Shown here in pieces: positions 7,616 through 12,965 of a stretch of 32,000 nt of DNA (position 1 is its first letter; every line of letters begins with the position of its first letter). The DNA comes from Psychrobacter cryohalolentis K5 (GTDB taxonomy: Bacteria; Pseudomonadota; Gammaproteobacteria; Pseudomonadales; Moraxellaceae): assembly GCF_000013905.1 (NCBI RefSeq), contig NC_007969.1, positions 1,260,001 through 1,292,000 on the forward strand. The letters run 5' to 3'. Position numbers and translations under genes: made by a program. The notes below the pieces were generated by a model. The model did no database searches, was not told where the DNA came from, and worked only from the letters and a program-made list of their open reading frames with translations.

Positions 7616-7655
7616 AAAAATGGTCAATGGCTTTGTATCGCGATTGACCATTTTT
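7616..7655. terminator. Bidirectional rho-independent terminator (ends the Lon-like/WYL/TerD cluster; also downstream of the K+ channel)
   Basis: AAAAA-TGGTCAAT-(14-nt loop)-ATTGACCA-TTTTT. The 8-bp stem is perfect, with A- and T-runs on the two sides. It lies 22 bp beyond the TerD-like stop. Confidence 0.8.
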
Positions 7656-7676
7656 AAGTAAGCGCGGCATATCTTT

Positions 7677-8342
7677 TTAGCTATATATGGCTTGCGGGAT
7701 CGGTAAGGCACGAGCCAATTCATGCGACACTTGTTGCGCCGCTATTGCCAAATCTGTTGCAGGGAGTGGCAGGTTCTGTAACGTTAGATGCCAGTCATCT
7801 ACTTCTCGGCGCAAATGGGCAACCCACAGCGTCACGCAATCACGTGGCAGCTGCTTTAAATTGACCTCAAAAGAGCGGTTACCTTCATCATCGCTGAGAT
7901 GAATCTCGCCTTTTTTAACTCTGGTAAAAGGTTGTCCGTAATAGGAGTTGGCAATCAAAGCAATATGCGTGATATGAGCAGGGATTTCATCCAGATATAG
8001 TCTGATTTGCTCTTGATCAAGCGGTGCAAGATACATCGCTTGGTCACCGCGGTCTTTACCATTCAAACTATCGCCTTGATGGCATATCGATTCGGCTTTG
8101 TCGCGCAGCTGTTTAAACCAAACAATATCGCTGATGGTGCAGTTGTCATCATATAACACGCAAGCCAAATCAAGATCCATGGAGTTTGCATTTTTATTAA
8201 AACGCTTCTTTAATTTTTTAAATAAGCCTGTGCGCTCAACCTTGGTAAATTCATAATTCAGACCAAAAAATAAAGTTCCTGCGTCCAAACCCAACCCTCT
8301 TAAGCTGTCTGAAAGTAGTGGCGATGGGGTAGTGGTCGACAT
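7677..8342 (-). CDS. TerD-domain (tellurium-resistance TerD/TerZ family) protein
   Basis: 221 aa. It is block-wise collinear with TerD as I remember it:
- GLGLDA (TerD GLGWDA)
- MDLDLACVLY (FDLDASAFLL)
- HQGDSLNGKDRGDQ (HTGDNRTGEGDGDDE, Ca-binding loop)
- HIALIANSY (KIIFVVTIH)
- LWVAHLRREVDDWHL (LFGELYRHNGEWKF)

It has an extra basic insert, LFKKLKKRFNKN. An AAGGA Shine-Dalgarno lies 7 nt before the ATG. Confidence 0.8.
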   Translation of the reverse strand: MSTTTPSPLLSDSLRGLGLDAGTLFFGLNYEFTKVERTGLFKKLKKRFNKNANSMDLDLACVLYDDNCTISDIVWFKQLRDKAESICHQGDSLNGKDRGDQAMYLAPLDQEQIRLYLDEIPAHITHIALIANSYYGQPFTRVKKGEIHLSDDEGNRSFEVNLKQLPRDCVTLWVAHLRREVDDWHLTLQNLPLPATDLAIAAQQVSHELARALPIPQAIYS

Positions 8343-8429
8343 AGTAATCCTTTTGATACTTGGTTTTTTTATGAATGAGTTAGGTAGATGTAGAAGCTAT
8401 AAAAGTGCTTGTAAGAATGGCGTAAAAAA

Positions 8430-9566: not shown

Positions 9567-9685
9567 GAAAAGATAACCTTTGTAATGTCACGATTATAAA
9601 GTCAGCGGGTTATTCACATTAGTATGAGCATGAAAGGACATCGGCAGATGGTTATTATATAGCATTGCAGAGAGCACCCTAATAT

Positions 9686-12613
9686 CTAGCGTGCTTCATC
9701 TATAATAACTTTTTCTACGATAGTGTCGTTATCCTCTTTAATAAGCTGTTCTTTAATAGCCTTTTCTTTCTTAGAGACTTTATTCTTATCTTCTTTTTTT
9801 TGGCGTTTCTTTTTGGCTTTCTTTTTTGATTTTTTATCGTCAATATCATCATCTGTATTTTGGTTTTCATCCCATAGCATCAAACGACTTAAGACTTTAC
9901 CAAACAACGTCTCTTTGCGGTAGCGACTTTTCTTATTCACTGTATCGACAGGTAATCCCGTCATTAATGTGAGCGCTTCACTGAGCGTGTGCACCCCATA
10001 TATATGAAAGCTACCTGCTTTTACAGCAGTAATGATATCGTCGCGCAGCATAAGCTGTTTGACGTTTGCCATAGGAATGACCACGCCTTGCTGTCCAGTC
10101 AATTCTTGCTCGCGGCACGCATCAAAGAAACCTGCAATCTTGGAATTGATGCCGCCGACGGCTTGTACTTCACCAAGCTGATTCATAGAACCTGTAATAG
10201 CAAGGGATTGATTAATCGGTACGTTTGCTAAGGCAGATAACAGGGCACAGCCCTCACTGACAGTCGCGCTATCACCATCAATATGCGCATAGCTTTGCTC
10301 AAAAGCCAGTGAAGCACTAAAATTTAGTGCATGGTGCTGACTAAATAACGCTCGTAAGTAGCTCGTCATAATCAGCATACCTTTGGCGTGCAAGCTACCG
10401 CCCAAATCAACATCACGCTCGATATCTAGGATTTCACCCGTACCGATATTTGGCTGAATGACCGCTGTGAGACGGGCAGGCATGCCAAACTCACTATCGG
10501 CATAGCTTACCACTGTTAAGGCGTTGACTTGCCCAACTGCCTCTCCTTGAGTTTGAATAAGCTGCTGACCGTTTTTGAGCTCATCCCAATAGAGGTCGCG
10601 CAAATATCCTGAGCGCTCATCCATATCTTCAATAGCTTGTACCACATGTTTGGCACTGACGATATCCTGTCCGCCCAAACGCGCATGGCGATTGGATTCA
10701 TGCAACAGCTTAATAAGCAAATCACTGTGCAGACTTAGACGGTCTTGATCCTCTGCTTGCAGACTTAAATGCTCAAGTAGAGCAGCTTGTGCCCTTCTAT
10801 CAAATGGATAAAGATTGGCGTAATCAATGATATCTGCCATCTTTCCGACCAACGCGAGCTCGTGCTCATGAGTACGAACCACATCATCGTGGAAGTCAGC
10901 ACGTACCTTAAATACCGCATCAAACTCCGGCTCAAGCTCCAGTAATTCGTAATACAAATCAGCTTCACCCAATAAAATGACCTTTATATCAAGATCAATG
11001 GGCGCAGGAGATAAAGATAAGCTACCTGTTAAGGTCAGCATTTGCTCAAGACTTGAGAGTTTAATTTTACGAGACTGTAGTGCACGCTTAAGACCTTGCC
11101 ACGCATAAGGATGCTCAAGCAAATGACTCGCTTCAAGCAGTAAGTAACCTCCATTAGCACGATGTAAAGCGCCGGCACGAATCATGCTGACATCGGTCGT
11201 AACCGTACCTAATTGAGTGATTTGCTCTACATGACCTAATAAATTTAAGTGAGTAGGCAAGTCTTCAAAGATAACGGGCGCACCACTATCAGGCTCATGA
11301 CTGCTAATAACATTGACCGCATATCTACTAGGCGTCGTGGCGAGCAATGCCGTTACAAACTCTTCATCATCTCCATTAACGATACGCTCGACATGAGTAA
11401 CCATATCGGCAAAGACTACTTTTAGATACTCAACGACCAGTGGTTGAGCACTGAACTGCTCATAAATAGGGGTAAATAACGGCTGTAGTGCCCGTTTGGC
11501 AATATTGCGATGTAGCGACTCGATGGCATCATTGGCTTCATCTTCTAATTGCTCTAAAGCAATCGTCAGCTGACTCAGCCGTCTTTGCATATGATTTTTT
11601 TGAGCAAAATTATTTAGCTCAGTTTCATATTCGCTGCTATATGAACTATCATTAGCCTTAATATCGCTCTCATCGGTGCTAGCGGTTGCCGCTTCCTTAT
11701 TGTCATTGATAAGGGTATTGTTTTTATGACTATTAGAGAGTTTGTCTTCTTTATCATCCATATCGCTCGTTTCTGTTGCAAGCTGGCTTGGATGAACAAA
11801 AACGGCTTTATTATCAAACGGCCGAAACGTTAACGCTAGATCATACTGCTTGCCCTCAGCATTGAGCACATCATAGGCGTGACTTTCCTTTTGATGTGTG
11901 TCATTTTTGATGGCTTCTATCTTGCTTTGATACTGATCGCTGCGAAAGCGTTGACTCAGCCGTTTTTTGGCTTGTTGCCACAAAGTATTGACTTGGTGTT
12001 GCAAGACAGCGGCCTGACCAGCAGGTAAGCGTAGTGCTAACGGAGTCCGAGGGTCAGTGAAGTTGTGTACATATACCCAATCATCCGGCGTCGGTGCATC
12101 GGCTGCGATAAGACTGAGCAAGCGACTAATCACCGTACGTTTACCTAAACCATTCTCGCCAGCCGCAAACACATGATAGCCACTAGCATGAATATCGAGT
12201 GCCGTATGCAATGCCTTAAGCGCCCGCTGTTGCCCAAAACCAATATCTAAATCGGGTGCGCTACGAGTATCGGCTGGCAGCAGACTGGGTTTACTATAGC
12301 GCTTAAGCTGGTTTGTCGCGACGAGGCAGCGCTGACTGACTTCTATGAATATAGGATGAGGTGTAATAGGCGCATCAGTAGCGTTAGGGATATTTTCTTT
12401 TTCTACCGACTTACGAGCCGTTTTTTTACGTTTTAAGCTTTTATCCAATTTCTTCTTATCTAAGGAATTTTTATCCAATGATTCCTTATTGGCTGAGGGC
12501 TCTTCATGGGGATGCTTGTTACTTGAGTCACTAATAGGCATCATAGCCTCTGCGGTATTATCGCTAATGTCTTGTTGGTCTTTATTCAGGGGTATGTTTG
12601 TCTGTTCTGTCAT
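9686..12613 (-). CDS. Lon-like protease, LonB/AAA_32-type N-terminal ATPase-like domain plus S16 protease domain
   Basis: 975 aa. The N-terminal module is GFGQQRALKALHTALDIHASGYHVFAAGENGLGKRT, with P-loop G152-x4-G-K158-R159 (Arg where Ser/Thr is canonical). The C-terminal Lon protease domain has catalytic Ser in IDGDS782AT and Lys in GGINSK825IAGF. Lys-rich low-complexity tails lie at both ends, and there is a polar insert near residues 280-340. The start is ambiguous: the ATG at 12613 has no Shine-Dalgarno, while the second ATG of the M24-M25 pair (12541) has GAGG 5 nt upstream. Confidence 0.85.
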   Translation of the reverse strand: MTEQTNIPLNKDQQDISDNTAEAMMPISDSSNKHPHEEPSANKESLDKNSLDKKKLDKSLKRKKTARKSVEKENIPNATDAPITPHPIFIEVSQRCLVATNQLKRYSKPSLLPADTRSAPDLDIGFGQQRALKALHTALDIHASGYHVFAAGENGLGKRTVISRLLSLIAADAPTPDDWVYVHNFTDPRTPLALRLPAGQAAVLQHQVNTLWQQAKKRLSQRFRSDQYQSKIEAIKNDTHQKESHAYDVLNAEGKQYDLALTFRPFDNKAVFVHPSQLATETSDMDDKEDKLSNSHKNNTLINDNKEAATASTDESDIKANDSSYSSEYETELNNFAQKNHMQRRLSQLTIALEQLEDEANDAIESLHRNIAKRALQPLFTPIYEQFSAQPLVVEYLKVVFADMVTHVERIVNGDDEEFVTALLATTPSRYAVNVISSHEPDSGAPVIFEDLPTHLNLLGHVEQITQLGTVTTDVSMIRAGALHRANGGYLLLEASHLLEHPYAWQGLKRALQSRKIKLSSLEQMLTLTGSLSLSPAPIDLDIKVILLGEADLYYELLELEPEFDAVFKVRADFHDDVVRTHEHELALVGKMADIIDYANLYPFDRRAQAALLEHLSLQAEDQDRLSLHSDLLIKLLHESNRHARLGGQDIVSAKHVVQAIEDMDERSGYLRDLYWDELKNGQQLIQTQGEAVGQVNALTVVSYADSEFGMPARLTAVIQPNIGTGEILDIERDVDLGGSLHAKGMLIMTSYLRALFSQHHALNFSASLAFEQSYAHIDGDSATVSEGCALLSALANVPINQSLAITGSMNQLGEVQAVGGINSKIAGFFDACREQELTGQQGVVIPMANVKQLMLRDDIITAVKAGSFHIYGVHTLSEALTLMTGLPVDTVNKKSRYRKETLFGKVLSRLMLWDENQNTDDDIDDKKSKKKAKKKRQKKEDKNKVSKKEKAIKEQLIKEDNDTIVEKVIIDEAR

Positions 12614-12965
12614 AGGAATAGGGTCAGTCGCTTAAAAGTATTAAATGATGATTGATTTTGGTTTTTTTGATGTGGCAATGAATACATTAGCATTTATAGT
12701 AATAGAACATCTTACAAGATATCGCTGTTTTTTGAAGCAATCATTGAGCGCAATTTTGTATCATGGGCAATTATGTCTTAGCCAATAAAAGTGTACTAAT
12801 AGTAATTATAAAACGATAATAGTAGAACAGTTAAAGAAGAATAACAGCTCAATATAGGCGTAGATAGTATAAGATGACGCACATTGGCGCAATCTGCAAC
12901 TATTCAATAAGCAGCCTGCATGATAAAATAGACGGTTCACATGTCAAAAACGGATAAACCCTTGT

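Follow-up and report, generated by a model that had tools for sequence, protein, structure and literature searches.

DdaA is a WYL-family activator that governs DNA-damage and anti-phage regulons in the Moraxellaceae (PMC12392091, PMC13010146). Its operator is CGWCA-N5-TGWCG, and its damage-activated targets comprise DNA-repair, CRISPR-Cas, restriction-modification and Zorya genes; ddaA itself is inherited vertically and is not self-regulated in these genera, including Psychrobacter (PMC12392091). In DdaA of Acinetobacter baylyi, R47 and R51 serve promoter binding, Y173 and Y200 serve damage sensing and A229 is a suppressor position (PMC13010146), and an Arg-to-Ala change specific to DdaA has been described (PMC12392091). 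Here we analyzed a cluster of three genes, lonC-ddaA-terD, in a stretch of 32,000 nucleotides from Psychrobacter cryohalolentis K5 (NC_007969.1, positions 1,260,001 to 1,292,000; "the window" in the following), the middle gene of which encodes a WYL regulator.

PafBC is encoded together with the Pup-proteasome in actinobacteria. Like the Psychrobacter regulator, it is a LexA-independent DNA-damage activator of the WYL family whose genes lie beside those of a compartmentalized protease. The two differ in that DdaA is a homodimer and PafBC a heterodimer, that the neighboring protease is LonC and not the 20S proteasome, and that the adjacency is seen in one genus only; moreover, the DdaA clade is separate from both PafB and PafC (PMC12392091). 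BREX loci, with the WYL protein BrxR and the Lon-like protein BrxL, also join a WYL regulator to a Lon-related protein. However, gene 1 of our cluster gave no PADLOC match to BrxL, genes for PglX, PglZ and BrxA-C are absent nearby, and DdaA is an activator from a clade distinct from BrxR and CapW. From the ter operon of IncHI2 plasmids the locus differs in the absence of terZABCDE, terY and TelA partners and in the position of its terD gene downstream of ddaA.

The open reading frame (ORF) listing of the window gave three genes in a row on the minus strand, running 12613->9686, 9566->8430 and 8342->7677:

9686..12613, minus strand: lonC (gene 1), Lon-like protease of the LonC subfamily, 975 amino acids (Pfam, PDB matches, LonC motifs, A. 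baumannii ortholog)
8430..9566, minus strand: probable ddaA ortholog (gene 2), activator with winged helix-turn-helix (wHTH), WYL and WCX parts, 378 amino acids (A. baumannii homolog, DdaA residues, Arg-to-Ala signature)
7677..8342, minus strand: terD (gene 3), divergent TerD-fold protein, 221 amino acids (Pfam TerD, profile matches to 3ibz and 2kxt, Foldseek, family alignments)

The gaps are 119 bp (lonC-ddaA) and 87 bp (ddaA-terD), and a leader of 352 bp with a GC content of 33% (43% for the window) separates lonC from the divergent rsmG-parA-parB genes; the initial annotation, made from the DNA letters, had given the same ORFs, gaps and AT-rich leader. We propose that these are three core chromosomal genes, each of which can be explained separately, and that their adjacency is probably an arrangement specific to Psychrobacter rather than a dedicated functional module. 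The parts are known kinds of gene in a genus-specific synteny, not a new self-contained defense or stress module.

Gene 2 very probably encodes the DdaA of Psychrobacter

The WYL protein of the window had a single match on each of three A. baumannii chromosomes in PLSDB (NZ_CP077849.1, NZ_CP064203.1 and NZ_CP104448.1), which make up the A. baumannii comparison in this study, with 49% identity over residues 52 to 370 (tblastn E value, 4e-96; BLASTP E value, 5e-113). The orthology rests on this one-way search, from the Psychrobacter protein to the A. baumannii chromosomes. The identity is in the same range as the 45% between the DdaA proteins of P. aquimaris and A. radioresistens (DdaA preprint); other WYL proteins on plasmids were only 28 to 34% identical to the window protein. 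The A. baumannii homolog, an ORF of 335 amino acids, carries R47, R51, Y173, Y200 and A229 at the published DdaA positions. Because these residues stand in the exact positions and the motif FALHRF is present as well, we identify this ORF as DdaA.

The same residues are present in the window protein. Its DNA-reading arginines R85 and R89 align with R47 and R51 and lie within SLRTVQRD, which is invariant in Psychrobacter, and Y211 and Y237 align with the single-stranded DNA (ssDNA)-sensing tyrosines Y173 and Y200, both again invariant. The spacing from R51 to Y173, 122 residues, is identical in the window protein. FALHRF, the Arg-to-Ala signature in strand beta4, was found at residues 253 to 258 of the window protein and at 214 to 219 of A. 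baumannii DdaA. The usual consensus is F-R-L-D-R-I; in DdaA the first of the two beta4 arginines contacting ssDNA is replaced by alanine.

In Pfam, gene 2 matched WYL (6.6e-10), and its WCX and helix-turn-helix matches were weak, in agreement with the earlier description as a wHTH-WYL regulator; in the A. baumannii DdaA ortholog, WCX was above the cut-off. PDB searches with the WYL protein, by single sequence and by profile, gave no matches, and its AlphaFold2 model was poor (predicted local distance difference test [pLDDT], 42). The Psychrobacter protein thus resembles Acinetobacter DdaA in its wHTH-WYL-WCX layout, in the arginines, the tyrosines and the Arg-to-Ala change, in coming from the same family and in having no self-regulatory box. 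It differs in that a variable low-complexity extension of 45 to 50 amino acids precedes the core of ~330 amino acids, and in its genomic context: the Psychrobacter gene has lonC and terD as its neighbors, near rsmG, and the A. baumannii gene has mnmG and an operon of the Anbu type. Among the trio the regulator is the most conserved member, with long invariant runs across the wHTH domain and the linker. Its identity to the P. pasteurii clade is 65%, compared with 59% for RsmG, 50% for LonC and 40% for TerD, as expected of a global regulator.

Taken together, gene 2 is with little doubt the Psychrobacter ortholog of ddaA. Because of the orthology to Acinetobacter DdaA, for which the mechanism was shown, the product would be a homodimeric WYL activator that replaced LexA in the Moraxellaceae, would sense ssDNA via its WYL domain and would then switch on repair and anti-phage genes that have CGWCA-N5-TGWCG boxes elsewhere in the genome. 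The initial annotation had tied the WYL gene to DNA-damage and anti-phage responses, which is borne out by the assignment to DdaA. The further suggestion that the trio could be a so far unnamed proteolytic module gated by the WYL protein, in which TerD would serve as adaptor, substrate or effector, is not supported: the WYL protein is a global activator already described for the whole family, and its operator is missing from all noncoding regions of the trio (see below).

A LonC-type protease and a divergent TerD-fold protein

LonC proteases are defined by four features (PMC3391209): their Walker A-like motif lacks Ser/Thr, the catalytic Glu is missing from the Walker B-like motif, the protease domain carries two insertions, and the proteins have no ATPase activity. 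Gene 1 matched the Pfam families LonC_helical, AAA_32, LonB_AAA-LID and Lon_C, with LonC_helical, the helical or insertion domain in the AAA-like module, above the cut-off (E value, 2.6e-13). Its top PDB match was MtaLonC/TTC1975 (2.4e-88), with archaeal LonB far behind (8e-22). The earlier description as a LonB/AAA_32-style protein was therefore right about AAA_32, but the protein is of the LonC and not the LonB type. The Walker A motif is degenerate and without Ser/Thr (GENGLGKR, residues 152 to 159; GPPSLGKH in MtaLonC), and so is Walker B, in which the canonical D-E pair is missing (GGYLLLEA, 488 to 495; GYLILDA in MtaLonC). The dyad is intact, with Ser782 in GDSAT and Lys825 in GGINSK, both aligning with the MtaLonC dyad. 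Among the pair of insertions specific to LonC, the second (phi-X2-A-phi) is present as IITAV at 860 to 864, and the first has kept its length and reads CREQELTG compared with CX3GLX(G/E), with Glu where the consensus has Gly. By these domains and motifs gene 1 is a member of the LonC subfamily, and by analogy to the Meiothermus enzyme its product should be an ATP-independent chaperone-protease. The A. baumannii ortholog of lonC is 47% identical and has the same four Pfam domains.

MtaLonC/TTC1975 (PMC3391209, PMC13069640) shares with the window protein the domain order, the Ser-Lys dyad, the degenerate Walker A and B motifs and the second insertion. The window protein differs in being ~240 residues longer and in coming from a mesophilic/psychrophilic gammaproteobacterium. 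Both tails of Psychrobacter LonC (residues 1 to 95 and ~905 to 975; window positions 12330-12613 and 9686-9900) are lysine-rich and of low complexity, the C-terminal one with 31% Lys plus Arg, and an enlarged acidic and Ser-rich insert lies at residues ~260 to 340, inside the helical insertion domain; neither the tails nor the insert is found in MtaLonC, which has 732 residues. The lysine-rich tails could bind nucleic acid. An AsrA-type protease was also considered as the identity of gene 1 and was rejected, since AsrA is of the LonA type according to a preprint.

Gene 3 matched Pfam TerD with an E value of 1.2e-13 (51.4 bits; cut-off, 25.3), and all domain calls made for the trio in the initial annotation were thereby confirmed by profile search. 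A single-sequence PDB search with the protein gave no matches; a profile of the family matched the solved TerD structures 3ibz and 2kxt, and the top seven Foldseek matches of the AlphaFold2 model (pLDDT, 61) were TerD structures with a probability of 1.0. The metal loop GDSLNGKDRGDQ lies at residues 90 to 101, a basic patch, KKLKKRFNKN, at 42 to 51 within an N-terminal extension, and the conserved C-terminal helix of the subfamily ends in HELARALP. The positions of the metal loop and the basic patch, like those of GENGLGKR, Ser782 and Lys825 in LonC, were exactly as first annotated. The TerD fold thus stood, but the view that the Ca-binding loop is mostly kept did not. The loop reads GDSLNGKDRG-DQAMYLAPL-DQE, with an insertion of 9 residues relative to 3ibz and 2kxt, and several acidic positions are Lys, Arg or Gln, so that a loop of the type GDNxTGEGxGDDE is not intact. 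Judged by this alignment, the calcium site is remodeled.

The gene 3 protein shares the beta-sandwich fold with the TerD proteins of Klebsiella (2kxt) and Streptomyces (3ibz, 2qz7) and with the stress proteins YceC/D/E ("SCP2") of Bacillus, and it has kept the DxD near the N terminus as well as the GD in the metal loop. It is only 10 to 22% identical to the solved structures and differs from them in the loop insertion, the lost acidic residues, the additional basic N-terminal segment and the C-terminal helix. It evolves fast; the two main clades of Psychrobacter are only 40% identical in this protein. Genes for TerA, TerB, TerC, TerE or TerZ were found neither in the window nor in any other Psychrobacter locus, where the neighbors of terD are ddaA and an ion-channel gene. 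In no PLSDB record, the three A. baumannii chromosomes included, did a TerD match extend over 80% or more of the query, and the plasmid searches returned only distant classic TerD/TerZ proteins of at most 33% identity. Two further TerD sequences were seen in metagenomic loci. An outgroup member of the subfamily (L146, 995-1777; 260 amino acids, 34% identity), from an AT-rich metagenomic organism, has a metal loop enlarged by an insertion of ~40 residues, with a long noncoding region upstream of the gene and an epimerase-like gene downstream; neither ddaA nor lonC was found in the ~1 kb of contig upstream. The other (L149, 94-486) is intact for ~80 residues, continues into unrelated sequence and has unrelated neighbors, so that either truncation to a pseudogene or a chimeric assembly accounts for it.

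Predicted transcription units

The following features outside the coding regions bear on transcription of the trio:

9651..9678, minus strand: ddaA promoter-like element just past the lonC stop codon (genus-wide conservation, core once per locus)
7614..7657, no strand assigned: bidirectional intrinsic terminator between the convergent terD and ion-channel genes (folding energy, A- and U-runs)
12855..12960, no strand assigned: conserved block of ~110 bp abutting the rsmG start (promoter scan, conservation across 33 distinct leaders)
12708..12723, minus strand: palindrome GATATCTTGTAAGATG of the lonC leader (in 17 of 33 distinct leaders)

A promoter scan revealed a near-consensus promoter for lonC, TTGACA-16-TATCAT (12947->12920, 11 of 12 matches), and on the opposite strand of the ~110-bp block what is probably the rsmG promoter, of the extended -10 type. 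The lonC gene would be read from a conserved sigma-70 promoter of its own, beside rsmG, to give a Ser-Lys protease of the LonC type without catalytic Walker residues. The spacer between lonC and ddaA is long and variable (93 to 450 bp) and holds a promoter-like element with the genus consensus TAGACG-N17-TGcGATGAT. In 11 diverse species its core, CTTTTCTGCGATGATAA, had a single occurrence in each ~20-kb locus, and this was invariably in the lonC-ddaA spacer. In the window the element reads GGTGCTCTCTGCAATGCTATATAATAAC; it has drifted in the window's lineage, with the -10 TGc-TATATA/TATAAT kept. A reference-based 12-mer scan missed the element owing to this drifted reference copy, and it was recognized by reading the spacers. 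The ddaA-terD spacer is short, 15 to 190 bp with only 15 bp in P. jeotgali, and most of its conservation is around the ribosome-binding site.

When distinct loci were scanned uniformly, terminator-like sites were present past terD in 28 of 33; the lonC-ddaA spacer had one in 7 of 34 cases and the ddaA-terD spacer in 2 of 30. On the minus strand of the window no such site was found between the trio genes, and the hairpin past terD (-20.3 kcal/mol, z = -5.4) has an A-run and a U-run on either side, as the initial annotation had it. The strict DdaA box CGWCA-N5-TGWCG did not occur anywhere in 766 kb of Psychrobacter loci around the trio, and the three one-mismatch boxes in the window are at chance level and lie outside promoters. 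Our best inference is that none of the trio genes is under DdaA-box control and that there are two transcription units, lonC and ddaA-terD. The second would start from the promoter-like element of ddaA, which has no DdaA box of its own, and terD is predicted to be co-transcribed, probably ending at the bidirectional terminator shared with the ion-channel gene.

If terD is read together with ddaA, the two could form a functional operon in which TerD is a Psychrobacter-specific accessory of DdaA, be it a Ca- or stress-responsive modulator or a constitutive damage effector, and lonC is merely a neighbor. The short spacers, the scarcity of terminator-like sites before terD compared with their frequency past it, and a promoter-like element before ddaA that has no evident counterpart ahead of terD in the main clade argue in this direction. 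Moreover, the TerD subfamily is found essentially only downstream of ddaA: ddaA lies directly upstream of terD in 57 of 61 metagenomic loci that carry the subfamily, and the other four are two cuts at contig ends, one outgroup and one fragment. However, the co-transcription is itself a prediction, TerD evolves much faster than DdaA, and in the P. pasteurii clade the ddaA-terD spacer has a conserved extended -10 of its own (TGCTATAAT-like). DdaA works in Acinetobacter, although the three A. baumannii chromosomes hold no full-length match to the TerD subfamily, and the outgroup TerD has no ddaA in the ~1 kb of contig upstream. We regard a functional ddaA-terD operon as unlikely.

Further elements were noted in the leader and the spacers. 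The palindrome GATATCTTGTAAGATG lies ~107 nt upstream of the lonC start in the window and 71 to 144 nt from the ATG in the leaders that have it; it was also recorded as ATATCTTGTAAGAT, at ~100 nt upstream from lonC, and in one species the two arms are both altered (TAGCTTGTAAGCTA). The palindrome is a candidate and could be a lonC-specific operator or a hairpin in the 5' untranslated region. An operator shared by the lonC leader and the ddaA promoter was unconvincing, as only the short 8-mer ATGATAAA recurs. The P. pasteurii clade has a short rsmG-lonC leader (112 to 128 bp), which carries a perfect palindrome, TACTGTA-N-TATAATACAG, that overlaps TATAAT (L085 and L086, 9839-9856; L089, 6072-6089; L091 and L092, 6060-6077). 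With its CTGT-N8-ACAG pattern it resembles a LexA SOS box, which is unexpected where DdaA reportedly replaced LexA; it is absent from the window's clade. Just upstream of the ddaA element, the lonC-ddaA spacers of L109 (about 8650-8790), L107, L105 and L110 contain short, species-specific direct repeats, which read TAGACG/TAAACG/TAAACG/TAAATG with a spacing of ~11 nt in L109 and consist of GGACTTTAAA units in L105 and L110; these could be sites for a regulator of ddaA. Finally, ~25 nt around the ddaA ribosome-binding site (window 9590-9566 region; consensus GACTTCATAAAGGTTATCT) are conserved well beyond what ribosome binding needs and may be a translational control element.

Gene order in Psychrobacter and outside the genus

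In every Psychrobacter locus that extends far enough, the order is parA-rsmG, lonC-ddaA-terD and ion channel-(ompW)-aceF, and the trio has the same order in P. jeotgali and P. pasteurii. All 39 loci reaching far enough continue past ddaA with lonC and then rsmG-parA. The housekeeping genes on the flanks (ion channel, ompW, aceF/E) are as conserved as the trio, and since they are equally syntenic, conservation of the trio within the genus is uninformative on function. Word-indexed searches with TerD, LonC and the WYL protein gave, among the matches listed, only Psychrobacter and were thus uninformative on the distribution outside the genus; the best protein matches of the window were of the P. 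cryohalolentis type, with 98 to 99% identity. In one Psychrobacter lineage, a repeat resembling a miniature inverted-repeat transposable element (MITE), with the parts GGCAGAAATTTTTCT and GAAAATTTCTCCCAGCC, is inserted at several sites in and around the trio: in the lonC-ddaA spacer of L110 (393 bp), in the ddaA-terD spacer of L105 (190 bp) and in the first 120 bp past terD in both. The spacers thus tolerate insertions.

The LonC family is very large, with 1,722 clusters at 50% identity (E value of 1e-30 or less), and the neighbors of lonC differ outside the genus. A search within 10 kb in 80 LonC loci from very diverse lineages revealed neither a TerD nor a WYL ORF, and neither family was among the 25 most frequent Pfam families (those matched by at least 2 of 147 neighbors) in a census of LonC first neighbors. 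The four nearest relatives outside Psychrobacter (57%, 54%, 47% and 41% identity), which bring these loci to 84, likewise have unrelated neighbors and neither WYL nor TerD genes. One of these four, an outgroup, keeps lonC beside rsmG, followed by a non-WYL gene; its RsmG is only 44% identical to that of the window. In A. baumannii, lonC and ddaA are 179 to 422 kb apart. There lonC stands alone among genes for MFS, LysR, NlpD and SurE proteins, and ddaA is flanked by mnmG and an operon of the Anbu type. The neighborhood census that the initial annotation had suggested thus found non-synteny outside the genus, in the 80 diverse loci, the four nearest relatives and A. baumannii alike.

In NZ_CP077849.1 (L150, 4034-7736 and 9356-11236), ddaA is divergent from an operon for CP-ATPgrasp, alpha-E, transglutaminase and proteasome-type (Anbu-like) proteins and convergent with mnmG (gidA), so that ddaA is near a gid gene in both genera. 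The three A. baumannii chromosomes (3.7 to 4.1 Mb) are filed as plasmids in PLSDB with almost no gene table, which is a trap for plasmid statistics. Among the LonC first neighbors the only recurrent family was the universal stress protein (Usp; 16 of 147). In Chloroflexi, Acidobacteria, Chlorobi, Planctomycetes and some Proteobacteria, a gene of ~260 to 290 amino acids, with the same orientation as lonC, adjoins the lonC 3' end or overlaps it (L018, L019, L025, L028 to L030, L032, L039, L043, L057, L058, L064, L066, L067, L073 and others, at about 12300-13300), and a lonC-usp operon looks widespread.

In Psychrobacter, DdaA might have gained lineage-specific partners, namely a co-transcribed, remodeled TerD that modulates or executes the response and a LonC that resets it by proteolysis; we consider this very unlikely. 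If it were true, WYL-type activators of the damage response would be recurrently wired to compartmentalized proteases, as with PafBC and the proteasome or ddaA and Anbu. That the whole trio is a functional unit, in which LonC would degrade DdaA, TerD or damage-response proteins to reset the response in parallel to PafBC/Pup-proteasome, is highly improbable as well. The gene order is invariant throughout the genus, most lonC-ddaA spacers have no terminator, ddaA adjoins a different compartmentalized protease operon in A. baumannii and the PafBC-proteasome operon is a general precedent. However, A. baumannii has lonC and ddaA at unlinked sites, LonC neighbors are unrelated in the 84 other loci, and the outgroup has lonC beside rsmG without ddaA. 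Furthermore, the lonC-ddaA spacer is variable in length, takes up MITE-like insertions and has a separate promoter-like element, and the lonC leader has no DdaA box.

A mobile or horizontally acquired anti-phage defense island can be dismissed: although WYL, TerD and Lon-like domains each occur in some defense systems and the PADLOC WYL models match gene 2, PADLOC had no match for the LonC protein, which is thus not BrxL, or for the TerD protein, plasmids carry only distant TerD/TerZ, the trio occupies the same place among housekeeping genes in every Psychrobacter locus, neither a compositional break nor an integrase, transposase or other mobility gene was found in the window, and the LonC and DdaA orthologs of Acinetobacter (47 to 49% identity) agree with the vertical inheritance of ddaA (PMC12392091) and argue against recent acquisition. 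PADLOC was applied to the trio genes; the ORFs from aceE to parB are typed as housekeeping genes, and the other ORFs of the window were not screened individually. The initial annotation had already noted that mobility genes and a compositional break are missing and had cautioned that the trio might belong to the conserved core of its lineage and not to a mobile island, with which the fixed housekeeping context across Psychrobacter agrees. An Rfam search of the region gave no match to an RNA family.

Discussion

Our reading of the locus as three separately explicable core genes has to be weighed against several observations. The trio order survived the deepest split of the genus, to the P. pasteurii clade, despite MITE-like insertions in the spacers and changes in the flanks (loss of ompW), which is compatible with selection for linkage. 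The lonC-ddaA spacer is without a terminator in 27 of 34 loci, so that read-through could couple expression, and the 8-mer mentioned above recurs, in 5 to 8 of 12 species, both in the ddaA promoter region and in the leader between lonC and rsmG. WYL-type damage regulators lie beside compartmentalized proteases in three settings, PafBC-proteasome, ddaA-Anbu in A. baumannii and ddaA-lonC in Psychrobacter, and this recurrence might not be chance. Finally, the orthology to the P. aquimaris DdaA, which was tested by electrophoretic mobility shift assay, is a proposed one.

We found no paper in which TerD, WYL and Lon appear together or in which the P. arcticus locus tags are given. The locus is not a new defense system, and a false lead is removed: what had looked like a local WYL switch is, by the assignment of gene 2, the master activator of the DNA-damage and anti-phage response of the Moraxellaceae. 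What remains modestly interesting is the probable co-transcription of ddaA and terD and whether TerD assists DdaA.

For the biology of DdaA, the result is that the Psychrobacter ddaA gene now has a genomic address and a promoter architecture, and that it is probably expressed together with a TerD-fold gene restricted to the genus, which is directly useful to those working on DdaA. If TerD or LonC were to act on DdaA, a newly found substitute for the SOS response would gain a post-translational layer.

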